Source: a virus (Duplodnaviria; Caudoviricetes). Taken from it: DNA of 64,000 nucleotides. Under the pieces are notes generated by a model. It was not told the DNA's origin. It did no database searches and worked only from the letters and a program-made list of their open reading frames with translations. A program made the translations under genes and the position numbers. The DNA is taken from the IMG/VR virus record IMGVR_UViG_3300021387_000796, positions 1 through 64,000 of that record; one strand, written 5' to 3'. Shown here piece after piece: positions 3,001 to 49,249 of the stretch (its first letter is position 1; each line of letters opens with the position of its first letter).

Positions 3001-3424
3001 AAGTAATATCTAATTTAATTTTTGGTACTATGATTCTTTTGCCTTTGTATTTCAATTATTGGAAATAAATATGAATAAAGAATATGAAATTTGGCTAAAA
3101 ACTGTAAAAATCGACAATAAACCGATAACGATTTATACGGCAACTTATGAAAATAAGAAAGTTTGTGTTTATTCTATAGATAGCGAAATTTGTATAAATT
3201 GGTATATTAATGGGAAATTAATTGAAATGCCAAAATTTCCTAAAGAAATTATTACAGAAATGGAATTATTTTGTCAGACAATTATTTATAAATGCATAGA
3301 CAAACATTTAATGTACGAAATATTAAATACAATGGAGAAATATTTGCCTTATTTGGAAGATGAAGAAAATCCAATAAGTTCATTAAAATATATAAACATT
3401 GTGGGAGAAATTAAATTTGAATAG
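18..3424 (+). CDS. Cluster of small co-oriented hypothetical phage proteins (18-203, 210-494, 472-936, 950-1393, 1381-1593, 1593-2243, 2221-2850, 3059-3424)
   Basis: Abutting or overlapping ORFs, several with AGGAG/GGAG-type SD sites. No family motif recognised. Confidence 0.7.
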
Positions 3425-4226
3425 TCCGATTAAATATTATGGTGGTAAATCCTACATGACGGATATTATCATTTCTCATTTTCCAAAAGATTATTCTGTT
3501 TATATAGAAGGATTTGGTGGTGGTGCTTCTGTTCTATTTGCAAAAGAACGAGATAAATTGGAAATCTACAATGATTTAGGTGAAAATGTGTATTCTTTGT
3601 TCAAGGTTCTTTCAGACAAGGAACTTTTTGAACAGATGAAAGAAAAGTTGGATTTAACATATTATTCTTCTAATATAAGAAAAGAGTTTATCGAAGATTT
3701 GAAAAGAGATGATTTATCTTTGTTGGATAGAGCATATAAATATTTTTACGTAAATCGTTCAAGTTTTAATGGGATTGGAGGATTTTCGACAACATTACTT
3801 GTTAGAAGAAATATGAGTAAATCAGTTTCAGATTATCTTTCTGCTATAGATGGATTAGCAGAAGTACATAACAGATTAAGTTCTGTAATCATAGAAAACA
3901 GAAATATTTTTGATTTGATTGAAAAATATGACGATAAAAATGTTTTCTTTTATCTTGACCCACCATATGTTCATGATACTAGAAGTAGCGGAACGGAATA
4001 TGAATGTGAAATGTCAGATGAAGAGCATAAAAAATTAATAGATATTATGCTAAATTCAAAAGGAAAGTTTTTGGTTAGTGGTTATGAGCATCCAATTTAT
4101 CAAAAGTTGGTTGATAATGGTTGGAATTTATATAAATATGATTCAGTAAATGCTTGTAATGACAGAACTGAATGCTTATGGTACAATTACAATATTGAAG
4201 AAGGAAATTTGTTTGATGAAATATGA
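3399..4226 (+). CDS. DNA adenine methyltransferase, Dam/D12 class
   Basis: Motifs YYGGKS, EGFGGGASV and YLDPPY. The true start may be the TTG near 3417. Confidence 0.9.
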   Translation: MWEKLNLNSPIKYYGGKSYMTDIIISHFPKDYSVYIEGFGGGASVLFAKERDKLEIYNDLGENVYSLFKVLSDKELFEQMKEKLDLTYYSSNIRKEFIEDLKRDDLSLLDRAYKYFYVNRSSFNGIGGFSTTLLVRRNMSKSVSDYLSAIDGLAEVHNRLSSVIIENRNIFDLIEKYDDKNVFFYLDPPYVHDTRSSGTEYECEMSDEEHKKLIDIMLNSKGKFLVSGYEHPIYQKLVDNGWNLYKYDSVNACNDRTECLWYNYNIEEGNLFDEI

Positions 4227-4385
4227 AGATAAAACTACAAAAGAAGATGAAGAAAATAGAATCATCAGAATTGAAATGACTGCTGAAAATTGGGAAGAAA
4301 ACAAAATGCTTGCCAAGGGAATTGAAATAGATGAACCGCAATATGTAGAATGTGTGATTGATTTGAAAAAAGGAGGAATAAAAAT

Positions 4386-4817
4386 ATGAATGAAGTAAAT
4401 GATGTAAGAAGTTATAACTGCGGAGCATCAGATTACAGTAAACATAAATTTCAATCATGGGATTTTTGGATTTTATTTAGGTTAAATCCTTGGGATGCCG
4501 ATTTGGTAAAAAGAGAATTACGTATTAAAAAAACTGATGGAAGACTTTTAGACTATAAAAAAATGAAACACATTGCACTTGAGCGTATTAGACAGTTTCA
4601 GAATAACGAGAATGTATTTCCTATCGAAAATCTTGAACCAAAAGATATTACTTTAGGTGAAATGCTTGAAGATTATGATTTGACTTCTGATGATGTTGTT
4701 ATTCTGACAAGAATTCTTTATCCGAATGTAAAAGACCGTGTTTCTGATTATGAAGAAATTATTGAAATTTGCAACAAGAGGATTGGAGAGTTGGAAAAGG
4801 AAGAAAAAATAAATTAA
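4386..4817 (+). CDS. DUF3310-like phage protein
   Basis: SYNCGASDYSKH...W..F.LNPWDADLVKR..R.K...DY.K pattern recalled from DUF3310-like phage proteins. Confidence 0.5.
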   Translation: MNEVNDVRSYNCGASDYSKHKFQSWDFWILFRLNPWDADLVKRELRIKKTDGRLLDYKKMKHIALERIRQFQNNENVFPIENLEPKDITLGEMLEDYDLTSDDVVILTRILYPNVKDRVSDYEEIIEICNKRIGELEKEEKIN

Positions 4818-4879
4818 GTCTTGAAAAATAATTTGTTACATAATATCCTTATCTAAAATAAAATAGATAAGGATTTTTT

Positions 4880-5887
4880 ATGATAAAATTAAATGACCTT
4901 GATTTAGATAAAACACTAATGTGTTCACACATTGACGCTGATGGCACGATTCCAATTATTCTTAATAAATTTTTTCAAATAAATTATGCAAAAGAAGTAA
5001 TGAGCAATTATGGAGAAGATGCTGAAAATTCCGATTTATCTAGCGGATTGTATAATACGGTAATTTATACAGATTTTACACCTAATGACAGAGCAAGAGA
5101 AATCATTAAAGAAAAGAATATGAAGTGCCTTATTATAGACCATCATGAAAGTGTAAAAGAATCTATGGAAGAATTTTGTAAAGATTATCCTAATGCAGAA
5201 TACATTTTTGATGTTACTAAATGTGGAACAAAATTATATTATGAATGGTTGCTTTCTCAAGGATATAAAGGAAATAAAGTTTCTGATTATATTGTTGAAT
5301 TGACGGATACTTATGATTTGTTTAAGAAAGAATCTTCTTTATTTAGTGAAGCCGATAAATTAAACAGATTACTTTACTCGTCTGCAAAGTGGTATATATT
5401 GAGGTCTAATCCTACAGACAGAATTTCTGCATATGAAACATTCATTAATTCTATGGTGTGGAAAATGCAGAATATGAATGAGTTCAAGTTTGTTGCATGG
5501 GAAATGGAAAAGATACAAGGTGATATAAATAAGGAAAATGAAATATTTGAAAGTTTGATAAAGAATGCACCTAAAGAAATATCGACTAGAAAAGATGAAC
5601 GAGGAAAATATTTCTGTGTCTTTTCTTGTAAAAGTAAAATTTCTGCAATCGCTTCTAGAGTTTTGGAAAAGTACAAGAAAGTTGATTATTTGTTGATAAT
5701 CAATGATTATAATCAAGATGAACCAAAAGTAAGTTTGCGTAGCCGAGAAATAAATTTATTAGATTTAAATTTTACAAGTGGTCACGAATTGGCTTGCGGA
5801 ATTGATTCTGAAAAAGTTGGTAATATGAAGGAATTTGTTAGAAAGTTGAAAAATAAGGAAATCTTTGAATTAGGATATAAGGAGTAA
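4880..5887 (+). CDS. DHH-family phosphoesterase
   Basis: Motifs SHIDADG, YTDF, IIDHH and C-terminal SLRS...SGH.LACG. Confidence 0.85.
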   Translation: MIKLNDLDLDKTLMCSHIDADGTIPIILNKFFQINYAKEVMSNYGEDAENSDLSSGLYNTVIYTDFTPNDRAREIIKEKNMKCLIIDHHESVKESMEEFCKDYPNAEYIFDVTKCGTKLYYEWLLSQGYKGNKVSDYIVELTDTYDLFKKESSLFSEADKLNRLLYSSAKWYILRSNPTDRISAYETFINSMVWKMQNMNEFKFVAWEMEKIQGDINKENEIFESLIKNAPKEISTRKDERGKYFCVFSCKSKISAIASRVLEKYKKVDYLLIINDYNQDEPKVSLRSREINLLDLNFTSGHELACGIDSEKVGNMKEFVRKLKNKEIFELGYKE

Positions 5888-5892
5888 ATAAA

Positions 5893-6624
5893 ATGTCAGA
5901 TATTAAATTATATAATGAAGATTGCTTAAAGATAATGGGGAGGGTCGCTGATAATTCTATAGACCTTATTTGTAGTGATGTGCCGTATCTTGTAACGAGT
6001 AGAGGAAATAGCGGTAGTATGGGTGGATATGTTACAAGTAAATTGGCAATGAGTGGAAAAATATTTGAAAATAATTCGATTAAACCATCGGATTATCTTC
6101 CGCATTTTTATCGTATTCTGAAAGACAAAACCCATTGTTATATCATGATAAATAATCTTAATTTACAAGAAATGTTAAATGAAGCAACTAAAGTTGGTTT
6201 TCATTTTGTAAAGTGTCTAATTTGGGATAAACAGAATAAAATTTGTGGTCGTTATTATATGAATCAATTTGAATATATTTGTTTGTTCCGTAAAGGTGGT
6301 GACAGACCAATTAATAATTGTGGTACATCAGACATTCTTTCTATTCCAATCAAGAAACTCAAAGATGAAAACGGAAACAATCTACATGATACAGAAAAAC
6401 CGATTGAATTGATGAAAATACTTATAGAAAACTCAACCAATGAAGGTGAAACAGTTTTAGACCCATTTATGGGGATTGGAAGTTGCGGAATAGCAAGTAA
6501 AATGTTGAATAGGAATTTCGTAGGTTGTGAAATAGACCCTAAATATTTTGAGATTGCGAAAAACAGAATTGAAAATAACGGAAATTATGTAGATGACTCT
6601 AAAGAAGATATTTTTGATTTTTAA
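5893..6624 (+). CDS. N4-C/N6-A DNA methyltransferase, beta class
   Basis: SDVPY catalytic motif first, then HDTEKP, LDPFMGIGS and GCEID. Confidence 0.9.
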   Translation: MSDIKLYNEDCLKIMGRVADNSIDLICSDVPYLVTSRGNSGSMGGYVTSKLAMSGKIFENNSIKPSDYLPHFYRILKDKTHCYIMINNLNLQEMLNEATKVGFHFVKCLIWDKQNKICGRYYMNQFEYICLFRKGGDRPINNCGTSDILSIPIKKLKDENGNNLHDTEKPIELMKILIENSTNEGETVLDPFMGIGSCGIASKMLNRNFVGCEIDPKYFEIAKNRIENNGNYVDDSKEDIFDF

Positions 6625-6843
6625 TTCAGAACAACTATAGCATCGTTGTAATTAAATAATTGTACATTTATAGAAGGTTTTAGTGTATTTACTCTACCCA
6701 CTCGTACATCATCTCCCATAACAGTTCTTATGTCTTCAAGAACTTCAATAAGTTGCTCTATTGTTTTGCAATTAAATTCTAATTGTGCTTTTTCTTCAAA
6801 TCTTTCCATAAAATAAATAGTTATAAAATATTGATAATTTTCC

Positions 6844-6872
6844 TTGACAAATAAATTATTCTCATTTATAAT
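6844..6872 (+). promoter_or_regulatory. Sigma70-type early promoter TTGACA-17-TATAAT with upstream GATAATTTT element
   Basis: Perfect consensus. Similar ATAATTTTnCTTGACA promoters occur near 8803, 20288, 23505, 45213, 58407 and 60253. Confidence 0.85.
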
Positions 6873-7986
6873 ATAACTATCTAATGAGGAGAAAATTTTA
6901 TGAAAGAATTAATGTTTGATATATTTGCTGATGACATAGAGATGGAAGGTGAAGAAATTAATGGAATTTTTAGTAATTATTGTTATGTAAATACTAATCG
7001 CTTTATTACAAATTCTAATTTTATTTTTGAATTGAATAAAGAATCGGAAAAAATAATTGAAAATTTAAGCAAACGTAAAAACATAAATGATGTAATTAAA
7101 AACATAAAAGAAAATGATTATTTTGTATATATTGAAAATGGATATATAATTTTAGAATGGAATTGTCATTTTATTTCTGCATATGGTAAATATAAATGGA
7201 AAATAAATAAAATTAATTTTGGTGCTGAACATATTTAAGAAGTATTTTATGAAATATGTTAGAAATAAGCAGTTAAGAAATAAATTGGATAAACTTGGAA
7301 TTAAAGATGTAGTTTTGAATTTTGATAGCGGTTTTGTTTCTATTTGGTCGGAAGATGATTTGACAGATACAATTCTTCATTATGCTGACAATACAATTGA
7401 AACTAGAATATTTGCTGATTATTCTGTTGATGAATGGGTAGAAATGATTAAAGATATTTTTGATGATGGATTGGAAAGTTATGAATGTAGACATGATTTT
7501 GACGATAAAGTAATTAAAATCGGAAAACAAATAACTATATAATAAAAAGAAATCGAAAACGGATTTTTAATTTAATTATAGGAGATAAAAGTTATGGGAA
7601 TGTATAATACAATTCTTGAAGGAAAACTTACAAATACTCTTGGTGTAAGAATTAAGAAAGAAGGTAAAGATGTGTATATTATTGACGCTCTTGTTCTTGA
7701 AAATAATGGTAAAAATGATTTTTGGCATACATGGGGTGGTTGGGAATTAATTGATATTGCTAATTTAAGTGGAAACAAACTCGCTTTAGATGTTGGATTA
7801 GATTATTATTTGGAAGGGAATGATTTCAAATCATTTGTTGAATTTGCTAGAAATTGTGCAAATGCATTTTATGATGTAGTTCCATTCAAATCAAATGAAG
7901 AAATTTGGTAATAGGAGGATGATGCTAGTTTAGCAGTTAATGAAGTTGCAAAACATTTTTAGTTATTATAGAGGAGATATACTATT

Positions 7987-8781
7987 ATGAATTTGAAAGA
8001 AAATAAAAAATCATTTAAAGAGGAAATAAATAGACCTACTTGGAGTAAATGGGTAGTAAATGACATTCATCATATTGAATATTTTTTCAATGGAAAAATT
8101 GTAGATAAGAAAATGTTGAATTCTTTATTTGAATCAGAGGGGTTCGACACCGATGTTGATACTGTTGAAGATGAAATTAAAAAAGCAGTTCGTTCAGTAA
8201 GATTAGGAAATCTTGACGGCAATGCACTTCATATCGCTCACAATTCTGTAGGAAATAGAATTGACCTTGTTTTTGATATTGGTGGATTATTGGGTGATGT
8301 TGAAAGTTTGTCTAACGATGAGTGTATGATTAGAATTAATGGTGATATTTATGAACAAGATGAAATGTGGAATTTTGGATTTGCCATTTATTTGACTTGT
8401 GATGTTTATCCATTAGATTTTTCATTGGCAGAATCTAAAAAGAAATCATTAAGAAAAAGTCTGAAAGAATCAGCAAAACCAATCAATGAAAAGAATGTAG
8501 CCAAGTTTGTAGATGAACTTAATAAATTCTGTGATGAGAAAATTCATTATGTTGATGCCGATGCTGAAAGATTTACTAAAAAGTATGGTAAAATGTATAA
8601 TTTCAAATATCGTTTTGATGATACAGATGAAATGTTTGTAGTTTATGATTCTGAGGGAACTCTTGATATGTTTGATGATGTAGGTTTTGTAAGAGAAGAA
8701 ATAGACCGTCTTGCTAAGAAGAATGATTGGTATGCTGACCCTTATACATCGAGTGCGAATTTCACATTTGGTGAACTTTAG
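7987..8781 (+). CDS. Putative head-packaged protein with ESKKKSLRKSLKE linker
   Basis: Linker at 8431 is shared with the proteins at 24391 and 25943. Confidence 0.5.
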   Translation: MNLKENKKSFKEEINRPTWSKWVVNDIHHIEYFFNGKIVDKKMLNSLFESEGFDTDVDTVEDEIKKAVRSVRLGNLDGNALHIAHNSVGNRIDLVFDIGGLLGDVESLSNDECMIRINGDIYEQDEMWNFGFAIYLTCDVYPLDFSLAESKKKSLRKSLKESAKPINEKNVAKFVDELNKFCDEKIHYVDADAERFTKKYGKMYNFKYRFDDTDEMFVVYDSEGTLDMFDDVGFVREEIDRLAKKNDWYADPYTSSANFTFGEL

Positions 8782-12636: not shown

Positions 12637-12993
12637 GGAGATAAATTATGGCAAAGAAAAATTATAAAACAACAAATAACGATAAAAGAGTTTATCCTAT
12701 TAAAGTAAGATTGATTAAGCCAAATCCTGCAAATCAAGATAAGGTGGTTTATAATAATGTTGAACTTTATACATATAAAGATACTGTTATCGAAACTGTA
12801 GATGAATTCGCTAAGATTATTCCTATGCAGAAATACCTTGTAATCAAATCGGATGTTGTAGAATCGAAAACAGAAGTTGTAGAAGATAAAATTGAAAATG
12901 ATGAATAATTTTAATTAAAAAATTTATAAAATTATTGAAAGTTTAATACAAAATGTGTTAAAATCCTTGCAGAATATAAAGCAAGGATTTTTT

Positions 12994-13983
12994 ATGATTC
13001 AAGATGTTGAACAGTTATTATTGACTCATGGTATAAAATATCAAAAGAAAGGAAATAAAATTTTATGTTTATGCCCTAACCCTAATCATAATGATAAACA
13101 CGTAGGTTCGTTTTCTTTTGATACGATTAAAGGTGTAGGACATTGTTTTGCGTGTGGTTGTGCAGTAAATATATTTTCATTTAATAAATTACTCGGTGAA
13201 AAGTTGGAATATAAAGGTGATGTAAATTATGAATTTGCTAAATCTTTGAAACCAAAGAAAGAAGAAGTCGTGTATACTAAACCAATTGTTTATGGAAAAC
13301 TTTACGACCCTTTTTATGATAATAGAGTTATGGATTTCTTGCATGGAATCGGTTGGTCGGATGAGTTTATTGAAGAAAAGAGTGTAAAGTATTGTCGATA
13401 TTGTGAGATGATTGGTGAAAATATTGTAAATGATATTGATGAAAAGCCTACCGTTATGGAGAACAGAATTTGCATACCGATTTATAAAGACGGAAAACTT
13501 GTAAATTATGAGTGTCGAACTTTTGATAATAATCCTATAAAAGTAAAATATGTAAAAGGTTGTTCGAGTAATTTGATATATGGAATCGATGATATTGACT
13601 TGAATAAAGAAGTAATTTTATCTGAAGGAATAAAGAATATCGGAAAATGCTGGACTGTAAACAAAAACGTCATATCTACTTTTGGAAATCAAATCACAGA
13701 TATAAAAATGAGGATGTTAAATAAAATACCTAATCTTCTTGTTTTTTTAGATAATGATGATGGCGGATTACTCATGGCTCAAAAATTAAAAGAAGGTTAT
13801 GTGGGAAATTTAAGAGCAACATTCTGTCCAAAATTTTATAAAAAGGGTTCAGAAATTAAAGGTTTTGATATGAACGATTGCACATTACAAGAAATTCAAG
13901 AATATATAAATCATACAATGTCTATTGATAAGGCGATTCGAAAATTATCAAACAATAAATCTGATGAAATTTTTTGGCTTTGA
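12994..13983 (+). CDS. DNA primase (CHC2 zinc finger plus TOPRIM)
   Basis: CPNPNHND...CFAC zinc finger, SEG and FLDNDDGG. ATG 12994 follows an AAGGA SD. Confidence 0.88.
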   Translation: MIQDVEQLLLTHGIKYQKKGNKILCLCPNPNHNDKHVGSFSFDTIKGVGHCFACGCAVNIFSFNKLLGEKLEYKGDVNYEFAKSLKPKKEEVVYTKPIVYGKLYDPFYDNRVMDFLHGIGWSDEFIEEKSVKYCRYCEMIGENIVNDIDEKPTVMENRICIPIYKDGKLVNYECRTFDNNPIKVKYVKGCSSNLIYGIDDIDLNKEVILSEGIKNIGKCWTVNKNVISTFGNQITDIKMRMLNKIPNLLVFLDNDDGGLLMAQKLKEGYVGNLRATFCPKFYKKGSEIKGFDMNDCTLQEIQEYINHTMSIDKAIRKLSNNKSDEIFWL

Positions 13984-27619: not shown

Positions 27620-28456
27620 ATGATTGATTTTGAAAATATAGATTGTTTTGAGAAAATGAAATCTATGGAAAATAATTCTATAGATTTGATAATGACAGAC
27701 CCTCCTTATGGAATTTCATTTAAAGGTCAAACTTCAAATACAGAATGGGATAATATGACTGATGAAGAATATTCAGATTTTTTATTCCATTTATTTTTTG
27801 AATTTGAAAGGATATTAAAAGATAACGGAACGATTTGGTTATGTTGCGGTAGAACAAAAATTCCAATTGTGTTTGATGTATTAAAAAAGTTTGATAATTT
27901 GAATCTTAATCTTGACAATTGGCTTACTTATGTTAGAGCAAAAGGAAGGGGTTCAAAGAATAAATTGAAAAGTCAATGCGAAGAAGTTTTGCATATTTCA
28001 AAAGGTAAGAATTATAAATGGAATTCTGTTGAATATTTAAGGGAAGTTGTAGTGCCTTATATCAAAGACGGAAAACCTAGAGGGTGGATGATAGACCAAA
28101 ACACAGGTATGCGTGTTCGTTGGAGTGGTGTTGGAAATGCTTTGTTTTTCACCTCACCGTTTTTTAAAAATAAGTTTGAACCGCAAATTCATTCTACACA
28201 AAAACCTTTTCTGTTATGGGTAGAATTGTTGATGATTAGTTCAGATAAAAATGATGTTGTATTTGACCCCTTCAGTGGAAGTTGCTCTAGTGGAATCGCT
28301 TGTTCTGTTTGTGGTAGAAATTATATTGGATGTGAAATTGATAAAGATATGTATGATAAAGCAAATAATTGGTTGAATAATTATGACAAGGAACTTGTTA
28401 AAGAATATGTTGGAAGCAGAATAAGAAGAAATGAAGAAAGTATATTTGATATGTAA
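27620..28456 (+). CDS. N4-C/N6-A DNA methyltransferase, beta class
   Basis: Motifs TDPPY, HSTQKP and FDPFSGSCS. Confidence 0.9.
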   Translation: MIDFENIDCFEKMKSMENNSIDLIMTDPPYGISFKGQTSNTEWDNMTDEEYSDFLFHLFFEFERILKDNGTIWLCCGRTKIPIVFDVLKKFDNLNLNLDNWLTYVRAKGRGSKNKLKSQCEEVLHISKGKNYKWNSVEYLREVVVPYIKDGKPRGWMIDQNTGMRVRWSGVGNALFFTSPFFKNKFEPQIHSTQKPFLLWVELLMISSDKNDVVFDPFSGSCSSGIACSVCGRNYIGCEIDKDMYDKANNWLNNYDKELVKEYVGSRIRRNEESIFDM

Positions 28457-28470: not shown

Positions 28471-29334
28471 ATGAATTTTCAACCAGCGATTAAATGGAGT
28501 GGAAGTAAACGAAGTCAATGTGATGAAATTATTTCATACTTCCCTAGAAAAATAGAAAGTTATTATGAATCTTTTCTTGGTGGTGGTTCTGTGGCATATA
28601 GGCTTATGAATTCCGATATAAAAGTGAATAAGTTTATTTTGTCCGATTTGAATTCGGATTTGATAAATTTATATAAACTCATACAGAATGATTATAAGTC
28701 AATTATTTCTCACTATGAACTTTTATGGAATGAATTAAACAAAGATTCAGATTTTGAAAGAAAGAAATTGTATTTTGCAGAAATAAGAAAAAGATTGAAT
28801 GAAAAACATGACCCTAAAGATTTTATGTTTATAATGCGTACAACCACAAACGGTATGCCAAGATATAATTCTGATGGAGAATTCAACAATTCTTTTCATG
28901 TAACAAGAAATGGAATCGAGCCGTTTAGATTGGAAAAGATATTAAAAGAATGGAATAATACATTGAATAATCATAATGTGGAATTTATAAATGCAAGTTA
29001 TGATACATTCAGTCCGAATGAAAATGATTTTTGTTATTACGACCCACCTTATGCTAACACTAAAGGAATGTATTTTGGTGCAATAAATAATAATAAATTT
29101 TTTAACTTTCTTCAAAATTTAAAATGCTCATATTGTTTTTCATTTGATGGGTATTGTGAAGATGAAGACTCGACTTATGATGTGCCGAAGTCTGTTTATG
29201 ACAAACATGTTTATTTGAAAAACGGAAATTCATCATTTAGAAGGGTTATAGGAAATAAGACTGATGAAATAGTATATGAAAGTTTATATGTAAAAGGTTG
29301 TGAAAAACAAAATGAAAGTTTGTTTGATATGTAA
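28471..29334 (+). CDS. DNA adenine methyltransferase, Dam/D12 class
   Basis: Motifs KWSGSK, ESFLGGGSV and YDPPY. Confidence 0.88.
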   Translation: MNFQPAIKWSGSKRSQCDEIISYFPRKIESYYESFLGGGSVAYRLMNSDIKVNKFILSDLNSDLINLYKLIQNDYKSIISHYELLWNELNKDSDFERKKLYFAEIRKRLNEKHDPKDFMFIMRTTTNGMPRYNSDGEFNNSFHVTRNGIEPFRLEKILKEWNNTLNNHNVEFINASYDTFSPNENDFCYYDPPYANTKGMYFGAINNNKFFNFLQNLKCSYCFSFDGYCEDEDSTYDVPKSVYDKHVYLKNGNSSFRRVIGNKTDEIVYESLYVKGCEKQNESLFDM

Positions 29335-29407: not shown

Positions 29408-31654
29408 ATGAGCGAAACAAATGTAAAGACTGTAAAGAAAATCAAGAAAGTTGTGAGTGAACCGAATTTTATTGGTGTTGATTTCAGTAAATGTAATGAT
29501 GTAGGAACTTGTAATGGGGAAGTTGTAAATATATGTAAAGCCGAATTTGTAGGTATGAGTACAGTAAAAGAAAATTATACCACAAGTCCTAATGCAGTAA
29601 AAAAAGTAAAGAAGATTGTGAAAGATGAATCTACTGTGAAGTCTAATGCTATGAACAATTCTCCTTGCGATTTCAGTGATTTTGAAAGTGGTAAGATTGA
29701 AATACCTAGTTCTGCTAATGTGCCGACTGTGAAAAAGGTGAAGAAGTGCGTGGTAGAAAAAGTAATAGATGATTCGGAAGTTGATTGTAGTAAGCAGATT
29801 GTGTTCACTAGAGTTACGGATTTGAATGCGGATGATTATAAGGATTTTTTTACAAAAGAAAGATTTCCTAGAAATGCCATTTTTTTTGATTTTGAGGTAT
29901 ATAAGTATGATTGGTGTGTTACATTCTACGATGTGATGAATTACAAAAAGACTGTAATTGTAAATCAAAGAAAATCTTTACTTGAATTTTATTATAAAAA
30001 TAAGTCCAATTTGTTTTTTGCATTTAACAATAGAAATTATGATAATTTTATTTTCAAGGGTATTATTTTAGGAATGAATCCTAAAGAAATAAATGATAAA
30101 ATTGTTTATGATGGTCTTAAAGGATTTCAGATTTCAGATAAATTTAAAGATATAGAATTGTATGCTTTCGATTGTTATATTTTGGGGCATAGTCTTAAAC
30201 AATATGAATCATTTTTACAAATGGAAATAAATGAGGACCACACCCCGTTTGATATAAACAGATTGCTTACTAATGATGAATGGACTGAAATTTTAAAATA
30301 TAATGACCATGATGTAAAAAGTTGTATAGAAGTATTTAAGAGAAGTCCATATACTTATGACGCTCATATGGGTTTAATTGAGATGTTTGATTATCTTTCA
30401 TTCAATGAAATTAATAAAACATCAGCGCAAATTGTAGCGGATATTTTGAAATGTAAGAAAGGTACACATGATGATTCTGACCAATGGAATATCGTATGTC
30501 CACCAAATTTGCAAGTAAAAAAATATAAATATGTTATAGATTGGTTTTTGAATCCTCAAAATCATGATTTGAGTAAAAAGGCTGATTTTGAAATTATGGG
30601 ATTAAAACATACAATTGGATGGGGTGGAATTCATGCTTCGGTTGCAAAGGAATATATTGATAATAAAGACGGTGGAATTATAATGCATCTTGATGTCAAT
30701 AGTTACTACCCAAGTCTTGGAATTTTTGCAAAAGTATATCCAGAAGATAAGACTATTTTTGAACTTGCTTTTGGTAAAGAAGGTCATAAAATTTATAAAG
30801 AAATTTATGAAAAACGATTACAATTAAAACGAGAAGGTAAAAAGAAAGAACAAGCACCGTTAAAAATTGTTTTAAACGGAACATATGGTATCCTCCGTGA
30901 TAAAAATTCCAATGCTTATTATCCTAGAGGTGCAACATTAATTTCTGTTTATGGACAGATGTATCTTGTAGACTTAATTGAACATCTCGAAGAAGCAAAG
31001 TGTTGTAGAATTTTGAACTCAAATACAGATGGCTTGCTAGTAAAATGTTTTTCTGAAAAAGATATTGAAACTGTAGAAAGGATTAGACAAGACTGGGAAC
31101 ATAGGAGTTTGATGGGTTTGGCTCGTGACGATATTAACTATGCTTATTTTAAAGATGTCAATAATTATTTGTTTGAATTCGCTAATGGTAAAATCGAAGT
31201 AAAAGGTTCTTATGTAAAAGAGACAAATGATTTGGATAATGATTTACCTATTGTGAATGAATGTATCAGAGAATATATCATGCACAAAATCAATGTTGAA
31301 GAATTTATAAATAATTGTGATGAACTTTGGCGATTTATGAAAACATTCAAGTTGAGTGGTAATTATAAAGAAGTTTATCATAACGGAATAAAATATACCA
31401 ATAAGTGTTATCGTGTATTTGCTAGTAAAGATTTGAAAGATACATATTTAGGTAAAAAGAAAGCGGATAGCGATACTATTGAAAAATTTGCAGGACAATC
31501 AGACCATGTATTTATCGAAAACGGTGATATTCATGATAAAAAATGTTCAGAATATCCAATGCTAGATAAACAATGGTATATAAATTTAATATACGACCGT
31601 CTTGAAGATTTCGGTATAGATGCAAGACCTAGTATGTTTGAGGAATTCTTTTAA
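29408..31654 (+). CDS. DNA polymerase family B with 3'-5' exonuclease
   Basis: Exonuclease motifs FDFE, FNNRNYD and YNDHD. Polymerase motifs DVNSYYPS, KIVLNGTYG and NTDG. Confidence 0.9.
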   Translation: MSETNVKTVKKIKKVVSEPNFIGVDFSKCNDVGTCNGEVVNICKAEFVGMSTVKENYTTSPNAVKKVKKIVKDESTVKSNAMNNSPCDFSDFESGKIEIPSSANVPTVKKVKKCVVEKVIDDSEVDCSKQIVFTRVTDLNADDYKDFFTKERFPRNAIFFDFEVYKYDWCVTFYDVMNYKKTVIVNQRKSLLEFYYKNKSNLFFAFNNRNYDNFIFKGIILGMNPKEINDKIVYDGLKGFQISDKFKDIELYAFDCYILGHSLKQYESFLQMEINEDHTPFDINRLLTNDEWTEILKYNDHDVKSCIEVFKRSPYTYDAHMGLIEMFDYLSFNEINKTSAQIVADILKCKKGTHDDSDQWNIVCPPNLQVKKYKYVIDWFLNPQNHDLSKKADFEIMGLKHTIGWGGIHASVAKEYIDNKDGGIIMHLDVNSYYPSLGIFAKVYPEDKTIFELAFGKEGHKIYKEIYEKRLQLKREGKKKEQAPLKIVLNGTYGILRDKNSNAYYPRGATLISVYGQMYLVDLIEHLEEAKCCRILNSNTDGLLVKCFSEKDIETVERIRQDWEHRSLMGLARDDINYAYFKDVNNYLFEFANGKIEVKGSYVKETNDLDNDLPIVNECIREYIMHKINVEEFINNCDELWRFMKTFKLSGNYKEVYHNGIKYTNKCYRVFASKDLKDTYLGKKKADSDTIEKFAGQSDHVFIENGDIHDKKCSEYPMLDKQWYINLIYDRLEDFGIDARPSMFEEFF

Positions 31655-31754
31655 TTAGAGATTTTATGCAGTTAAGGGGATAAATTTACCAAAAATCGAC
31701 AAATTTACCCCTTTAACTACGGATTTTATGAAATTAAGAATTTTTGAGGAATGT

Positions 31755-32492
31755 ATGACAGAAACATTATATAAAGGCGATTGTCTTATTGAGATGAATA
31801 AAATTGCTGATAAATCGGTGGATATGATTTTGTGTGATTTACCGTATGGAACGACTGCTTGTTCTTGGGATGTTATTATTCCATTTGATAAATTATGGGA
31901 ACAATATAATCGAATTATAAAACCAAATTGTGCGATTGTTTTGTTTGGTTCACAACCTTTTATTACAAAATTGATTAATAGCAACATTGATAATTATAAA
32001 TATTCTTGGTATTGGATAAAAAATCAAGGTACGAATTTTTTTCATGCAAAACATATGCCTATAAGAAAAGTGGAAGAAATAGCAGTATTTAATGATTATT
32101 TAACTTACAACGCCATCAAATCTAAAGGACACGAACCTACTAGGTCTGCTAAAAATTGTTCTAACGGAAAATGTTATTTTGGAAAAAATAAAAGAAATTA
32201 TATAGGTGGTAGCACAGAAAGATTCCCAACCGATGTGTTAGAATTTAAATGTGTGAATAATTATGAAAGAAATCATCCTAATCAAAAACCTACAGACCTT
32301 TTGGAATATTTGATAAAAACTTATACTTTTGAAAATGAAACAGTTTTGGACAATTGTATGGGAAGTGGTTCAACAGGAGTTGCTTGCATAAATACCAACC
32401 GTAATTTCATTGGAATAGAAAAAGATGATACATATTTTGAGATTGCCAAAAATAGAATAGAAAAGGCGAAAGAAAGTTTGTTCGACATGTAG
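31755..32492 (+). CDS. N4-C/N6-A DNA methyltransferase, beta class
   Basis: Motifs CDLPYG, HPNQKP and LDNCMGSGSTG. ATG 31755 follows GAGGA. Confidence 0.9.
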   Translation: MTETLYKGDCLIEMNKIADKSVDMILCDLPYGTTACSWDVIIPFDKLWEQYNRIIKPNCAIVLFGSQPFITKLINSNIDNYKYSWYWIKNQGTNFFHAKHMPIRKVEEIAVFNDYLTYNAIKSKGHEPTRSAKNCSNGKCYFGKNKRNYIGGSTERFPTDVLEFKCVNNYERNHPNQKPTDLLEYLIKTYTFENETVLDNCMGSGSTGVACINTNRNFIGIEKDDTYFEIAKNRIEKAKESLFDM

Positions 32493-33826: not shown

Positions 33827-35158
33827 ATGGAGAAATACATGAAAATATACAACGAAACCAATGTGTTTGAAGAATCTCAGAAACGGATAGAATTTCTATT
33901 CGACCGTTATCAGAATATAATTGTACCATTCAGTGGTGGTAAGGATTCAACTGTTTGTCTAAATCTTGTTGTTGATTATGCTAGGAAACATAATCTGATT
34001 GACCGAGTTTGTATTGTACATGAAGATTTTGAAGCACAGTATGATATGACTACGGAATTTGTTGATGAAACCTTCAAATCATTGTCTGATATAAAGCATA
34101 AATATTGGTTGTGTCTACCGTTCAAGGCTCAGAATTGTTGCTCGTTGGAATCGAAGGGGTTTTGGAGACCTTGGAATAAAGAACAGAGAGAAATTTGGGT
34201 AAGAGAATTACCGAACTATGATTATGTAGTTACGGAAGAAAATTGTCCGTTTAATTTTGATTATGAATGGTGGGATAAGGATTTGTTATCTGCATTTTCA
34301 AATTGGTTTTCTAGTAAATATGGAAAATCTGTGAATGCTTGTGGCATTCGAGCAGAAGAATCTTATGACCGTTACATGTTGGTTACAAGTGGTTCACATT
34401 CTTTTGACAATCACCGCATTGAAAGTGGCAACAGATGGATTGTGGAAAATGAACTTTCATCGATGTCATATCCGATTTATGATTGGATTGTAGAAGATGT
34501 ATGGGTGTACTTTGCGAAGAGTGGGAAGACATATAACAAGTTGTATGATTTGTATTATAAAGCAAGTCTTTCAGTAGACCAAATGCGTGTAGCAAGTCCA
34601 TTCAATAATCAAGCCAATGCAACATTAAAATTTTATAAGTGTATTAATCCTTCGATGTGGGGAAGAATGATTTCTCGTGTACAAGGTGCAAACTTTGTTT
34701 CCCTTTATGGTGATACAAAACTTATGGGATGGAGAGATTGTAAACTTCCGAAAAACTACACATGGAGAACTTACTGTGAATTTTTGCTGAACACTTGTAG
34801 CGAAGATGTGAAAAATCATTTTATAGAAAAGTTTACTACTAGTATAAGTTATTGGTGTAAGGGAAAAGGTGCATTCATTGACCCACAGAGCATCGATGAG
34901 ATACACGAATTTTATAAAGATATTGAAATTGAAGATTTGGGAGAAAGTTCTAGATATAAAAATAAACATCTTGTGAGGTTTAAGAATTATCCTGACGATT
35001 TAAGTTTGTGTAAGAAATGGATGGATTTACCGTCTTACAAGAGAATGTGTGTAACAATTTTGAAGAATGATTACATTTGTAAAACAATGGGATTTTCACC
35101 TAGCAAGACGGAATCAGAAAAAAGAAAAATAGCATTGGAAAAATTTAAGGAGTTGTAA
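33827..35158 (+). CDS. PAPS-reductase-like protein (IbrA/YbdN, DUF3440)
   Basis: Motifs FSGGKDS, GIRAEES, YPIYDW..EDVW, QMRVASPF and PSYKRMC. Confidence 0.88.
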   Translation: MEKYMKIYNETNVFEESQKRIEFLFDRYQNIIVPFSGGKDSTVCLNLVVDYARKHNLIDRVCIVHEDFEAQYDMTTEFVDETFKSLSDIKHKYWLCLPFKAQNCCSLESKGFWRPWNKEQREIWVRELPNYDYVVTEENCPFNFDYEWWDKDLLSAFSNWFSSKYGKSVNACGIRAEESYDRYMLVTSGSHSFDNHRIESGNRWIVENELSSMSYPIYDWIVEDVWVYFAKSGKTYNKLYDLYYKASLSVDQMRVASPFNNQANATLKFYKCINPSMWGRMISRVQGANFVSLYGDTKLMGWRDCKLPKNYTWRTYCEFLLNTCSEDVKNHFIEKFTTSISYWCKGKGAFIDPQSIDEIHEFYKDIEIEDLGESSRYKNKHLVRFKNYPDDLSLCKKWMDLPSYKRMCVTILKNDYICKTMGFSPSKTESEKRKIALEKFKEL

Positions 35159-35160
35159 TT

Positions 35161-35787
35161 ATGGAAAAGAAAATTACGGTGAATTATGAAAATACTCATA
35201 CTTTTGAAAGATGTTGGGATTTGACAGACGAAGAAATAGAACAGATGAATAACTCTGATTATGTTTCACCGATTTATGAAGTGAAGAAAATTCCGATAGA
35301 ATTGATTAAAGCAAATAATTATAATCCAAATGCTATGGATAAAAATATCTTTGAACTTCTTCATACTTCTATGATTGAAAGTGGTTGGACGCTTCCTTGT
35401 GTTGTAGCACCAAATAACGATGAAGATAAAGACAAGCATCCCTATGTGTTGGTTGATGGTTTTCACAGAGTTTTGATTATGTCACTCTACAAGGATATTT
35501 ATATTCGTGAAAAAGGTGTAGTTCCTTGCGTAGTGTTGAATAAAGACCAAAATCGATATGACCGTATGTTTGCTACAATTTTGCATAATAGATGTAAGGG
35601 AACTCACGATATCGATATTATGTCGAATATTATTACGGAACTTGTTTCAAGTGGTCTGTCTGATTATGAGATTCAGCGAAGATTGGGAATGGATAAAGAA
35701 GAATTATTAAGATTGAAACAGTTGACAGGTCTTGCTAGTTTATTTGCTGATAAAGAATTTTCAAAAAGTTGGAAGTTTGAAGAATAG
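35161..35787 (+). CDS. ParB-like nuclease domain protein (IbrB/YbdM)
   Basis: Motifs ANNYNPN, VDGFHR, TILHNRCKGTH and LGMDKEELLRLKQ. Confidence 0.88.
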   Translation: MEKKITVNYENTHTFERCWDLTDEEIEQMNNSDYVSPIYEVKKIPIELIKANNYNPNAMDKNIFELLHTSMIESGWTLPCVVAPNNDEDKDKHPYVLVDGFHRVLIMSLYKDIYIREKGVVPCVVLNKDQNRYDRMFATILHNRCKGTHDIDIMSNIITELVSSGLSDYEIQRRLGMDKEELLRLKQLTGLASLFADKEFSKSWKFEE

Positions 35788-40202: not shown

Positions 40203-40253
40203 ACTATTTATGTTGTCATTGGTAGTGACATAAAAGTTAAAACATTTAAGGAA

Positions 40254-42335: not shown

Positions 42336-42387
42336 TAAATAAAAAACACCAAGAATAAACTTGGTGTTTTTATTTTAATTTATTATT

Positions 42388-44241: not shown

Positions 44242-44304
44242 AATTTTATTCTCCTATAATTAAAATTTTATTTACAATTTTATGTTTTAGATAGTTATAA
44301 AAAT

Positions 44305-45096
44305 TTAATTTGTTTCTCCAAAATATTCAGTTAAAAACATTTTCATTTGTTCGCTATCTTTATAATTTTCATAATTAAGTTTTTTAGCGGTAAAAAATTC
44401 AAGAAGTACACTTTTAGCCACATGTAAATTATCAGGATTTGTATCAAAATTTCCAATCATATAAGTTGTAATCGTAAAATCTATTCCGATGGTCCAAATT
44501 CTATTTTGTTCAAGCCAATCTGATTCTTGATAGGTCGGATTGTATTCTATGTCAAAATTCATGAGACCAGCGTTTGTTATAATATCTCCATCATTGGTTT
44601 CGACTTGAGGTTTAACAATGGTTTCATTTGAATTATCAAATAAAAGTTTGTTCATTGCATATTCGCAATCTTTATTTTGTGCAAAGAAAGCAGTTCCTTC
44701 ATAACTTATGGTTATAGGATAAATTCTCATTTTTCCACCCAATATTGATGTAAATTTATTTTCACGGTCAATTAATCCAAAACGATTAGAATAATCATTT
44801 TTCCAAGGTCTTTCGGCATCTTCAAATCCAATTCTATAATAATTCAAGAATGGTAAATTTAATTCACCAGCGTTAGTTCTAGTTCTTTCTCTAAAGCAGT
44901 ATTCATTTGAAGCGTATATTATTCTATCAAGTGGAAATTCAAGAACATCCGAAAAATGATTTTCTATAGCAATATCCGTAGCGTATGACATGGGTGTATT
45001 TGCCCAAGATTTCATTTGCTCACCATAATAAAATGGTTGAGGTTTTGTCATAAAATGAGGATTTGGATTTGTAGTAGACGTTGTATTTATATCCAT
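44305..45096 (-). CDS. Tail completion / sheath-terminator-like protein
   Basis: Adjacent to the sheath gene. LNLPFLNYYR, YPITISY and RIWTIGIDFT patterns. Late motif upstream. Confidence 0.5.
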   Translation of the reverse strand: MDINTTSTTNPNPHFMTKPQPFYYGEQMKSWANTPMSYATDIAIENHFSDVLEFPLDRIIYASNEYCFRERTRTNAGELNLPFLNYYRIGFEDAERPWKNDYSNRFGLIDRENKFTSILGGKMRIYPITISYEGTAFFAQNKDCEYAMNKLLFDNSNETIVKPQVETNDGDIITNAGLMNFDIEYNPTYQESDWLEQNRIWTIGIDFTITTYMIGNFDTNPDNLHVAKSVLLEFFTAKKLNYENYKDSEQMKMFLTEYFGETN

Positions 45097-46422
45097 ATAT
45101 CAAATAGTTAAAATTAAATAACTATATTTACAAGCAACCTCTGTTTGTTTTGAAATTCAATTTAATTTCTTGCAAGAATCAATCAAGTTGCTTAATTTTT
45201 TAATAATTTTACTTGACAGATTACATTTAGTTGTGATATATTATGTGTAGGAGGAACGAATCATGATTACTTTAAATTCTTTAACAATTGATTTACTTCG
45301 TATAATTGGTGAAGCAAATAAAATTTGTTCGAATTTATTGACGGAATCATTTCTCAATGAAGATATGAAAGTCGATGTTAAAACTTTTGTATCTTTATTA
45401 AATTCATATAGCAACACTCTTGAAAAAATTTTGGATAATAGAGAATTTTTATCAAATAACGGAATATTGGATAGGTCTTTACATGATGTTTCTATAACCA
45501 AAGAAAAGGCTTTGAAAGCATTGAACGGATTAAACCACATTTGTAATAATTGTAAAGATACAGTAAAACGAAACATCTTAATAAACGCTACAACACATTT
45601 CAAAGAAGTCGTAAATACTTATCTGTTTGCAATTAAAATATATCTTGAAGAAGTATTTCCTAATACAGATGAAAATACTATCTTAAAGAGATATGATTTA
45701 TATGAAATTGAATAGGAGAAAATAAATTATGGCAAGATTTGGATTGGAAAATATTGATAGAGATTTCTTTTGGGAATTAGTCGATGAAGGATATGTTTCT
45801 TATAGTATTATTGACGCTTATCTTTATATGCTTTCACAGAAGTTGAGCAAAGATACGGATATTCACTTTAGAGTAGAGAATGGTTATTTGTATAATGATG
45901 AAATTGGATTCAAGATTCCAACCTCTACAATTACTACTTATGATAATCTGCTGAAAGATATCGAAAAGTTTTTGTCAGAAAATGCTCAAGAGAATGAGTT
46001 TGGTGTAGATACCAATAAACTTGCTAATCAATGGGCATATACATTTTCTCATACAGAAATGTCTCCATACTATGAAGGTGATGGTCATTGGAAAGCATAT
46101 GATGATTATTCACAAAAACGTGTTTGGGAAGCACTATACTTTATGGTTTTTGGAAAATATCATGATAATATGGATTGGGCATTCGATACGGCTAGTGAAT
46201 ATTTAATAAAAGACGGTAATAACTATAATGAAAAATTCCATTTCAAAGGAACGGTTTCTGAATTAGATAATATATCTGTTACATTTGCTAAAAACGGTAA
46301 TATTTCTGTAAAAAATCCAAGTAAAGAATATCTTGAAAAATTGCAATTTTTCTATGATGTTTGCGACCCAAAGAATAAGAATCATGCTAGATAAAATAAA
46401 TTAAATTTGATATTATTATTTT

Positions 46423-46495
46423 GATTGAAAGGAATGATAGGCGGTCAACCTATTGATAGAATATCCTAGTTCTGTCTAACCTTTCAATCTTTTTT
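46423..46495 (+). ncRNA. Orphan three-way-junction RNA, copy 4
   Basis: Closing stem GATTGAAAGG/CCTTTCAATC, loops CGGTCAA and ATCCTA, then a T-run and the same TAACTAT..AACATTAACTATTT spacer. Confidence 0.7.
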
Positions 46496-46957
46496 AACTA
46501 TCTTATATAAACATTAACTATTTATATCAGTATTGCAGATATGATAATTATGTAAAAATTTTAGGTGAATATATTGTAGACCTAAACTTTGATAAATTAT
46601 ATTAATAGGATGGTGAATTATGAATAATTTAGAAATAGCACAAAGTAAATTAAAATATTCAGACCATGAATTTTTTATTAAAGACAATAATGAAGATTTT
46701 AAATATTGGAATCAGTTATATCTTTCTTTGACTCAACTAGATAATTTGGAAGATATTATTTTTACAGTAAGACGTGCTGATTGTGGAGGAGTTATTCAAA
46801 TTGATAAAAACAAACTCTCTATTAGAGTAGATGCTGATAAAGGTAAGTTGCCTTTGTTTTGGATAGAATATGATATAATTAATGATATTATAATTTTCTT
46901 TTAATGAATGGAAATTTTTCAATTTAGTATTGTTTTATTCTTTCCTTTAATGATATA

Positions 46958-47776
46958 TTGAAGGAAAGAATTTTTTATAAATGTAGGAATAATATGGGAA
47001 TTTTAAAACCGTTTTCAGAAGTAAAATGTGATAAATGCGATTCAAATGGATTCATCGTTGGTGAGAGTTCAGCAGTGAAATGTTCATGTAGAATGAAATA
47101 TGAATATGAACTCAAAGCGAGTAATATTCTTTCCAAAAGCGGATTACTTGATGAAAACTCTACTTATGAAGATTTCAAGAAACTGATTGATTTTGATTGG
47201 TCTGATTATCGTGGAAAAGATGAAAACGGAAATCTGAAAAAGTTACAGAAATATGTAGAAGAATTTGATTCAGATAAAAAACCTTTTAAGCATTTACACT
47301 GTTATGTATGGGGTGGGCAAGGTACACAAAAGTCATACACTACAAAAGGTGTTTTGACAAAGTTGGCAATCAAGGGAAAATCAGTTTATTACATTTTCGC
47401 TAAAGATTTGATTTCTTTACTTCATGATTCTGAACGAGATGAAGAATTGAAAAAGAAGTTAGATTACATTAAAAATGTTGATGTTTTGGTAATTGATGAA
47501 TTCGAGGAACAAAGATGTTGTTTATGGCAGAGCGGATACAAGGAACGTTTGCTTATTGTTTGGTTGAAAGAACGTCTTGAAGTTGTCAGAAAGTCAACAT
47601 GGTTTATTTCAAACGATTCTATGGAGGAACAGAAAGAAAGTAAATTTGGAGAATTATTTGGTGACATGCTTGACAGGGAGACGAAATTCGGAAGATTTGA
47701 ATTTAAAGACAAGTATTCAGATTATATCACCAAGGAAGAAATAGAAGAAACCATGAAAAATATTTGGGATGATTAA
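46958..47776 (+). CDS. DnaC/IstB-like ATPase (helicase loader)
   Basis: CxxC..CxC zinc site, WGGQGTQKS Walker A and LVIDE Walker B. Start is likely ATG 46994. Confidence 0.75.
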   Translation: MKERIFYKCRNNMGILKPFSEVKCDKCDSNGFIVGESSAVKCSCRMKYEYELKASNILSKSGLLDENSTYEDFKKLIDFDWSDYRGKDENGNLKKLQKYVEEFDSDKKPFKHLHCYVWGGQGTQKSYTTKGVLTKLAIKGKSVYYIFAKDLISLLHDSERDEELKKKLDYIKNVDVLVIDEFEEQRCCLWQSGYKERLLIVWLKERLEVVRKSTWFISNDSMEEQKESKFGELFGDMLDRETKFGRFEFKDKYSDYITKEEIEETMKNIWDD

Positions 47777-47788
47777 GAGGTTATAAAA

Positions 47789-48458
47789 ATGTCAGATATT
47801 AAATTATATAACGATGATTGTATTAAATTTATGGGGGGGGGTGAAGGATAAATCTATTGATTTTATTTGCACAGACATTCCTTATGATGAAGTTAATCGA
47901 AAATCGCAAGGGTTGAGAAAATTAGATAAAACAAATGCTGATGTTTGTACATTTGATTTAGATGAGTTTTTGATTCAATGTTATAGAGTGTGTAAAGGTA
48001 GCATTTGTATATTTTGTGGAATGAAACAATTTTCAAAAATATATGATTTCTTTTCACAAAAAGAAGGAACTGTTAGATGTATTGTTTGGAAAAAAACGAA
48101 TCCTTCTCCTATGAACGGTCAACATATTTATTTAAGCGGTGCAGAACTTTGTGTTTGGTTTAAGCCTAAAGGTTGGAAAACATTTAATGCATTTTGTAAA
48201 TCAAATGTTTTTGAATATCCTTGTGGTGGAAGTAAAGTACATCCTACACAAAAAAATTTAAAATTGATAACTGAATTAATTGAAAATAATACAAATAAAG
48301 GAGATTTAATTTTGGATACTTGTATGGGAAGTGGAACTTGTGGAATTGCTTGTGCGAATACAAATAGAAACTTTATTGGAGTTGAATTAGACGAAAATTA
48401 TTACAATATTGCTAAGAAACGAATAGAAGAAAGCAATACTAATTTGTTTGATTTGTAA
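47789..48458 (+). CDS. Beta-class DNA methyltransferase frameshifted at a G9 tract (47833-47841)
   Basis: MSDIKLYNDDCIKFM then G9 and a stop. With G8 the frame joins VKDKSIDFICTDIPY...HPTQK...LDTCMGSG. Confidence 0.85.
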
Positions 48459-48469
48459 AAGGAGAAAAT

Positions 48470-49249
48470 ATGGTATATCAAGGTAGTAAAGCGAAACTAA
48501 GAAAATACATTTTACCGATTTTGCAAAATTGTATAAATGAAAATCATATTGAAAATTATTATGAACCATTCTGCGGAGGTGCAAATATGATAGACCATAT
48601 CCAATGCAAAAATAGAATTGGTTCAGATATAAATTCAGAATTGATTGAACTCTTAAAATATATGAGAGATAATCCTAATCTCGATATCTTTCCTCAAGAT
48701 TGTTCTTTTGAACATTATTCTGATGTAAGAGAAAACAGAAAGAATAAAACAAATAAATATTCTATTCCTTATACAAGCGGAATTGGATATTTTGCTAGTT
48801 TTGGCGGAAGATATTTCGATGGTGGTTATGGAAAAGACCCTAGCGGTAAAAGAAATATTTATCATGAGAGATTAGAATACGCAAAAGAACAAGCATCCTT
48901 ATTGAAAGGAATAGAATTTGGTATACATTCTTTTGAAGATTATGACCCTAATTATTTTAATCAATGTTTGTTTTATTTAGACCCACCGTACAGAGATACA
49001 AAAATTTATAATGGTAAAGATGGATTTCCTTATGATTTATTTTATGATTGGTGTAAAAAATTAGGAAAGAACAACTATGTTTTTATTTCTGAATATTATA
49101 TGCCTTCCGACTTTAAATGTATTTGGAGTAAAGAAAGAAAAATAATGCAAAAATCAGATAGAGAAAAAGGTGAAGTTGCAGTTGAAAAATTATTCACAGT
49201 TGGAAAATCAAGTAACAATAATTTGGAAAAAGGTTTGTTTGACTTGTAA
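48470..49249 (+). CDS. DNA adenine methyltransferase, Dam/D12-like
   Basis: Motifs YQGSK, EPFCGGAN and YLDPPY. Confidence 0.85.
   Translation: MVYQGSKAKLRKYILPILQNCINENHIENYYEPFCGGANMIDHIQCKNRIGSDINSELIELLKYMRDNPNLDIFPQDCSFEHYSDVRENRKNKTNKYSIPYTSGIGYFASFGGRYFDGGYGKDPSGKRNIYHERLEYAKEQASLLKGIEFGIHSFEDYDPNYFNQCLFYLDPPYRDTKIYNGKDGFPYDLFYDWCKKLGKNNYVFISEYYMPSDFKCIWSKERKIMQKSDREKGEVAVEKLFTVGKSSNNNLEKGLFDL

Follow-up and report, generated by a model that had tools for sequence, protein, structure and literature searches.

In phage RB69, the tail of gp43 (ending KKASLFDMFDF) has been crystallised on its sliding clamp, where a hydrophobic pocket holds the tail and basic residues meet acidic groups (PMC3012046, PDB 1b8h), and several functionally different clients of one phage-encoded clamp in the T4/RB69 group (gp43 in both phages, and T4 gp33 and gp55 on gp45) carry an extreme C-terminal peptide that is hydrophobic-aromatic and acidic. 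Bacterial beta-clamp clients (Pol II, III, IV and V, MutS/L, Hda, ligase and, from a phage, Mu C, PMC12867686) also dock through a short linear, often C-terminal motif in the hydrophobic cleft that domains II and III of the DnaN clamp form between them. The consensus of the motif is Q-aliphatic-x-[L/M]-[F/L], an extra residue being optional; its L-F pair sits in subsite I, acidic residues or a free carboxylate often follow, and the Gln and aliphatic residue at positions 1-2 give much of the affinity of the canonical motif (PMC11139829). In animals, maintenance methylation is coupled to replication: the C5 enzyme DNMT1 is tethered to PCNA by a short motif and methylates newly replicated DNA (PMC9690074). 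Here we describe a short C-terminal peptide shared by nearly all DNA methyltransferases (MTases) of the phage recorded as IMGVR_UViG_3300021387_000796 in IMG/VR, and argue that it is probably a docking peptide for the phage's own sliding clamp, coupling DNA modification to replication. Our search of a paper library turned up no published account of a clamp-binding tail on a DNA MTase from a phage or a bacterium, and a 2024 review of the beta clamp names no methyltransferase among its partners (PMC11139829).

The phage, from gut or rumen, has a record of 218,066 bp that is linear and an estimated 92% complete. Its first 64 kb (G+C ~28%), the stretch of DNA analysed here and called the window below, carries early and replication genes; coordinates beyond 64,000 lie on the same record axis and continue the window numbering. 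For the whole record 341 genes were called, and all tail statistics are genome-wide over those proteins.

A shared tail on methyltransferases of two classes

Nine MTases, seven in the window and two outside it, passed the curated (gathering) cut-offs of Pfam, and those in the window comprise three D12/alpha-class and four N6_N4/beta-class enzymes:

3399-4226, plus strand: D12/alpha-class DNA adenine MTase, 275 amino acids (aa), PF02086 E 7e-24; ends GNLFDEI, with the tail NLFDEI at 4206-4223
5893-6624, plus strand: N6_N4/beta-class DNA MTase, 243 aa, PF01555 E 1.2e-29; tail EDIFDF
27620-28456, plus strand: N6_N4/beta-class DNA MTase, 278 aa, PF01555 E 2.2e-35; tail ESIFDM
28471-29334, plus strand: D12/alpha-class DNA MTase, 287 aa, PF02086 E 7.5e-32; tail ESLFDM
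31728-32492, plus strand: N6_N4/beta-class DNA MTase, 254 aa, PF01555 E 8.3e-26; tail ESLFDM after the last core helix (...IAKNRIEKAK)
47814-48458, plus strand: N6_N4/beta-class DNA MTase, 214-aa frame, PF01555 E 4.9e-29; tail TNLFDL
48470-49249, plus strand: D12/alpha-class DNA MTase, 259 aa, PF02086 E 1.5e-12; tail KGLFDL

Outside the window, the following genes encode the two further Pfam-supported MTases, other MTase-like proteins, and proteins with related ends:

109231-110148, plus strand: D12 MTase (Pfam); ends PSLFDMI
110176-110961, plus strand: N6_N4 MTase (Pfam); ends ETIFDI
196838-197758, minus strand: MTase-like protein, 306 aa (phrog_799); ends ESLFDL
155436-155936, minus strand: MTase fragment (phrog_799, E 1e-30); variant end EDIFNL
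212752-213342: small NPPF-motif MTase-like protein, 196 aa; no tail
214347-215297, minus strand: GNAT acetyltransferase frame; ends KDLFDL
96029-96502, plus strand: orphan protein, 157 aa, just after the topoisomerase IB gene; ends PSMFDDNF

The C-termini on which the original prediction was built, those of the seven window MTases, the DNA polymerase (SMFEEFF) and the primase (DEIFWL), all read from the translations exactly as it had listed them, and the Pfam assignments bear out its statement that the tails span both MTase classes. The D12/alpha and N6_N4/beta classes have circularly permuted motif orders, so that their C-termini are different parts of the fold. Anchored on the Phe, the tails share the consensus [E/K]-[S/N/D/T/G]-[L/I]-F-D-[L/M/I/F]-COOH. 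Statistically, the strict ending [LI]-F-D-x(1-2) closes 11 of the 341 predicted proteins, versus 0.6 expected from the internal [LI]FD frequency (p 5e-11), and of the 59 [LI]FD tripeptides in the proteome 12 begin in the final five residues. The strict tail is present on ten of 12 MTase-like proteins versus 1 of the 329 others (Fisher p 1.4e-16), the sole other being the GNAT acetyltransferase frame; the possibility raised with the original prediction, that such tails might be equally common on unrelated phage proteins, does not hold for the proteins of this phage. The two exceptions among the 12 are the fragment with the EDIFNL variant and the tail-less protein at 212752-213342, which has YYPTP and NPPF motifs and a weak match to EcoRI methylase, and which may not act on replicating DNA. 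Tail codons vary among the genes and no relatedness is seen in the DNA 3' of the stops; conservation is thus of the peptide, and a DNA-level repeat is ruled out as the source of the shared endings.

Outside the Pfam-supported enzymes, the GNAT frame, if clamp-tethered, could be an enzyme that modifies DNA or nucleic acid. The 157-aa orphan, without a match in Pfam, PHROGs, PDB sequences or the ESM Atlas, ends in PSMFDDNF, close to the polymerase end PSMFEEFF and in the same dialect. For the MTase at 47814-48458, a G9 run at 47834-47842 shifts the 5' end out of the reading frame set by the true start, ATG 47789: the frame from this ATG reads MSDIKLYNDDCIKFMGGG and then stops, and with one G fewer it would be joined to the 214-aa frame. 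The G9 run in 47789-47842 looks like a poly-G on/off switch.

Compared with known clamp-binding peptides, the phage tail ESLFDM is nearly identical to the ASLFDM within the RB69 gp43 end, and both ESLFDM and ESIFDM share with the T4 gp43 end (ASLDFLFG) an extreme C-terminal S-L-[FD]-[DF]-[ML]-F likeness. Against the bacterial consensus the agreement is partial: the [L/I]-F pair fits positions 4-5, but positions 1-2 are K/E/N and E/S/N, never Gln-aliphatic, and unlike in bacterial QL[S/D]LF the Phe has one or two further residues (Asp-Met/Leu) after it. Of the two precedents named in the original prediction, the bacterial one matches in the L-F core and not in the Gln and the aliphatic residue, and the T4/RB69 one matches in the tail, with a clamp that proved, as described below, to be of another type.

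Evolutionarily, the tail is an appendage and not part of the MTase fold, as judged from homologs at 60-70% identity that end straight after the catalytic core. Among the 120 closest homologs of the beta-class MTase at 31728-32492 (56-92% identity), 26 have the tail pattern, about 20 of these ending ...RI[EN]KAKES[LI]FD[ML]; the 94 others stop a few residues past the last core helix (...IAKxRIE) or have unrelated extensions. In the alignment of this family the core stops at ...IAxxRI and tail-bearers are longer by ~8-10 residues, so the peptide follows the last core helix as a short linear motif outside the folded domain. Within the tail-bearers, it is as conserved as the catalytic motifs: in 21 tail-bearing homologs (60-91% identity) F252 never varies and K248 and E249 hardly do. 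The alpha-class enzyme at 28471-29334 gives a similar picture, in that homologs at 86-95% identity retain K-E-[S/T/N]-[L/I]-F-D-M and the next group, at 62% identity and 274 aa (13 shorter), ends SIVYESLYLK without a tail. A relative phage (G001; IMG/VR, 135 kb, 64% complete) has MTases that end SDIFDL, ADLFDL, KDIFSL, EDIFGL and GGLFND. In bacterial homologs, with which the original prediction had suggested a comparison, the tail is nearly absent: of 80 copies in bacterial genomes and metagenome-assembled genomes 76 are without it, and it stands on only two short contigs (ENLFDL, ESLFAIS). With only close relatives tagged in both the alpha and the beta class, these comparisons support the earlier proposal that unrelated MTases acquired the tail, and indicate that they did so independently of one another.

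A divergent DnaN-type clamp and a tentative model of the tail on it

Profile searches of the 218-kb record returned no clamp with PF00712, PF02768, TIGR00663 or phrog_947, and no gp45-type or PCNA-type clamp with PF02916, phrog_223 or PF00705. Around the clamp loader gene of a Nodularia phage, too, the annotated genes included no clamp. A single candidate was picked by screening for acidic proteins of ~365 aa, followed by folding. The clamp gene that the original prediction proposed to look for elsewhere in the genome is present, together with a loader gene:

169590-170687, plus strand: sliding clamp, divergent DnaN type, 365 aa, isoelectric point 4.6 (predicted structure and family profile)
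200078-201283, minus strand: DnaX-like clamp loader (phrog_5846, E 7e-40)

Structurally, an AlphaFold2 model of the clamp from an alignment of 42 relatives reached a predicted local distance difference test score (pLDDT) of 93.4 and a predicted template-modelling score (pTM) of 0.86, the deeper alignment from a search of representatives having raised the pLDDT from the 67 obtained with a shallow one. The 365-residue chain adopts a three-domain clamp fold in this model, and all top Foldseek matches are bacterial DnaN (template-modelling scores of 0.70-0.77, E down to 7e-18), so that by structure the protein belongs with DnaN. By sequence the protein itself does not join that family, and its links to it are transitive and weak. 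Searched alone, it had no useful match in Pfam (including PF00712, PF02767 and PF02768), TIGR00663, PHROGs or PDB sequences; the profile of its family matches PDB beta clamps (E 2.5e-4), PF02768 is matched by 4 of the 42 relatives, language-model look-alikes fall in viral clusters with PF00712 in 14-58% of members, and hhalign of the family against E. coli DnaN alone gave a weak match (probability 5%). Only 40 clusters of this clamp family occur in the representative library, and the clamp of the relative phage is 85% identical. On its predicted fold, we place the 169590-170687 protein among the DnaN beta clamps, in a phage-specific family that has diverged very far and escapes detection by current profiles. 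This three-domain, DnaN-type clamp sets the phage apart from T4, whose gp45 is two-domain and trimeric, and shares its fold with the target of the bacterial clients. Known clamps of the DnaN type are head-to-tail dimeric rings that a DnaX-type loader places on DNA, and here a DnaX-like loader gene is present.

Modelling of the peptide on the clamp, also proposed with the original prediction, gave a result that points to docking at low strength. The complex prediction paired the clamp with the C-terminal 32 residues of the MTase at 31728-32492, each entered as an alignment, and scored 0.36 (runs of 0.36, 0.42 and 0.29) against 0.01 for the best of three controls; the runs share at least 41% of contacts, with a partner pLDDT of at least 45. 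In the calibration of the tool, 58 of 80 solved complexes passed its mark, as against 2 of 110 mismatched pairs, and among those that passed with 0.60 or less were only 7 of the 80 solved complexes, together with both of the mismatched pairs, which makes the score weak support; likeness to solved clamp-peptide complexes may also contribute to it.

As a side observation, the clamp loader and a 198-aa protein at 172732-173328 have near-identical basic ends (...TVKKVKKIVN and ...VVKKVKKIVN), a second shared C-terminal tag in the same replisome that is unlike the LFD tail.

Tails on the polymerase, possible further clients and the wider methyltransferase family

Besides the MTases, the window encodes four replication proteins with hydrophobic-aromatic C-termini:

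29408-31654, plus strand: DNA polymerase, 748 aa (phrog_1252, E 8e-128); C-terminus PSMFEEFF
12955-13983, plus strand: DnaG-type primase, 342 aa (PF01807 and Toprim; phrog_47); C-terminus DEIFWL
46958-47776: DnaC-like helicase loader; C-terminus KNIWDD
52523-53944: Pif1-like helicase; C-terminus NEMFGKD

The last ~9 residues of the polymerase lie past the end of its family profile, and homologs at 78-100% identity retain RPSMFEEFF. In a small sample of five more distant homologs, a hydrophobic-Phe tail was found in both records with their own clamp and in none of the three without; the tailed ones, ending AMGLF and QLKFF, come from records with a gene for a DnaN-like clamp (phrog_947, E 2e-26 and 5e-53), and in IMGVR_UViG_3300033068_001713 (350-3393) this gene, for a clamp of 347 aa, immediately precedes that of the polymerase ending AMGLF. 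The three clamp-less records include one that is 98% complete. By these comparisons the polymerase tail, too, is lineage-specific, and the pattern suggests that this polymerase family pairs with beta-type clamps in some phages and not in its small-phage members. The record of the relative phage (64% complete) contains no such polymerase. The primase is a possible further client with a looser tail, to judge from its ending. The ends of the helicase loader and the Pif1-like helicase have counterparts in the relative phage (KNIWED and EEMFGQ), and these conserved hydrophobic-aromatic ends may be looser docking tails.

In the wider beta-class MTase family, other phage and prophage copies have post-core ends that resemble ordinary clamp motifs, such as QPDLFG(G)AA, TQLELF, TQLDLFE, QSELF, QIKLF and NQLF. 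The pair [LIM]F is enriched in the post-core tails of IMG/VR copies (19 versus 5.2 expected, p 2e-6) and of bacterial-genome copies (12 versus 4.4 expected, p 0.002). Both N6_N4 MTases of a complete 155-kb phage that itself encodes a DnaN-like clamp are tagged (KRRLF and NKKLF). Across 49 IMG/VR records, many of them fragments or proviruses, three encode a clamp, and of these one has a tagged MTase and two have untagged ones; clamp ownership alone does not predict tagged MTases, and tagging is recurrent but not universal. Near-canonical ends (QPDLFGGAA, TQLELF, TQLDFFE) were also seen on N6_N4 MTase copies of temperate phages, at eight IMG/VR loci, several of them classed as proviruses, and at three loci in Enterococcus and Streptococcaceae genomes. 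Orphan prophage MTases with such near-canonical motifs may ride the host beta clamp.

Proposed clamp docking, its alternatives and neighbouring genes

Functionally, we posit that the tail, which this phage lineage has appended to nearly every DNA MTase of its own and to one acetyltransferase, is a short docking peptide. The DnaX-like loader would place the clamp on DNA, the Leu/Ile-Phe pair of each tail would insert into a hydrophobic cleft of the DnaN-type clamp, and the polymerase (PSMFEEFF) and probably the primase would bind this clamp through a tail of related type. With clamps positioned at the fork and behind it, the modifying enzymes could travel along new DNA and would methylate its many target sites while synthesis is under way or shortly afterwards, ahead of cutting by host restriction enzymes and of packaging. 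From the tails and the clamp we infer physical binding, fork-coupled timing and an anti-restriction benefit, the last of these being plausible where a phage carries a dozen MTases. Should the tails bind the clamp, self-methylation against restriction would be wired into the replisome and not left to the diffusion of free enzymes, which would explain how a dozen MTases could fully protect 218 kb of fast-replicating DNA. DNA MTases, and perhaps an acetyltransferase, would then join the client list of bacterial-type clamps; the clients here are DNA-modifying enzymes, of which there is none among the T4 clients named in PMC3012046. The arrangement would be a prokaryotic parallel to DNMT1 and PCNA, with many small N6/N4-type enzymes, a C-terminal tag, a bacterial-type clamp and presumed protection from restriction on the phage side, as against a eukaryotic C5 enzyme, an internal PCNA-interacting protein (PIP) box, PCNA and epigenetic inheritance on the other. 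For annotators, the rule would follow that an orphan with a polymerase or MTase tail probably acts on DNA at the fork.

Several observations weigh against docking on the phage clamp. A small MTase-like protein in the same genome (212752-213342) has no tail, and the MTase copies in two other clamp-encoding phage records are tail-less; polymerase homologs in small phages work without a clamp, and the polymerase and MTase tails (SMFEEFF and SLFDM) are alike but not identical. Neither the Gln nor the aliphatic residue of positions 1-2 is present in the tails, and the modelled tail-clamp complex is weak by the calibration of the tool.

Alternatively, the peptides could serve a different partner or none. 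It is unlikely that they dock on the host beta clamp, with the MTases using host clamps left on DNA or competing with host clients: the L-F pair, the acidic residue that follows it and the free carboxylate do resemble bacterial clamp motifs, and the copies in clamp-less proviruses and temperate phages that end QPDLFG or TQLELF can serve only a host clamp, but the phage encodes a clamp and a loader of its own and its tails are without the Gln-1 and aliphatic position 2 that matter for bacterial clamps. This non-canonical tail, moreover, goes with a clamp too divergent for DnaN profiles, which fits co-evolution with the phage clamp. Some other replisome or nucleoid hub, such as the polymerase itself, a helicase or a single-strand-binding protein, is a similarly doubtful target. 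In phage T7, the acidic, aromatic-ended C-terminal tails of gp2.5 and gp4 bind the polymerase, a precedent for such a hub, and the weakness of the clamp complex model leaves room for one; yet here the polymerase has a related tail itself, which makes it a client and not the hub, polymerase tails co-occur with clamp genes among the relatives, and the likeness to the clamp-binding tail of RB69 is close.

Improbable to a greater degree is a C-terminal signal without any docking role, such as one for sorting or packaging, or a tag that shortens the life of the MTases by marking them for degradation. Proteases can recognise short conserved C-terminal peptides as degrons, and dosage seems to matter in that several MTases are apparently under poly-G on/off control, but a similar tail closes both the primase and the replicative polymerase, neither of them a likely target for destruction or packaging, and the motif is unlike that of ssrA-type degrons, which end ...LAA. 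It is scarcely credible that the shared ending arose by chance, was inherited with the genes from a common ancestor or belongs to the MTase fold itself. Leu, Ile, Phe and Asp codons are common in this AT-rich genome and some of the beta-class MTases are paralogs; however, the tail is found on two circularly permuted classes and a GNAT protein, with differing codons. Chance is ruled out as the origin by the excess of observed over expected endings, and a fold element by the tail-less close homologs of both alpha and beta enzymes.

Beyond this phage, the docking of tails on phage clamps can be extended, tentatively, to the view that clamp-owning phages use the clamp as a general plug-in platform, in which a tail of ~6 residues could make any enzyme that has to reach the whole of the new DNA, of whichever fold (alpha- or beta-class MTases and, here, also an acetyltransferase) replisome-coupled, and in which the tail dialect would co-evolve with the clamp: x-S-L-F-D-M with a very divergent beta clamp, and [K/R][K/R]-L-F or Q-x-x-L-F with more ordinary clamps. 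If so, the bacterial world would have its own equivalent of DNMT1 on PCNA, one that has arisen many times, and the tails would offer a sequence rule by which to spot DNA-modifying enzymes, for example the 157-aa orphan and the 306-aa MTase-like protein.

The window also contains an RtcB ligase and several HNH homing endonucleases. Outside it, a 143-aa protein at 205847-206278, for which no family match was found, ends KTELFED; the Mor/C-family C protein of phage Mu needs the host beta clamp (PMC12867686), and by analogy the 143-aa protein is conceivable as a clamp-dependent late activator. Directly 3' of the MTase-polymerase-MTase cluster lie two genes whose products have no LFD tail and may form a further DNA-modification module:

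33827-35787: PAPS-reductase-like protein (phrog_2302, E 3e-85), then ParB-like protein (phrog_2159)

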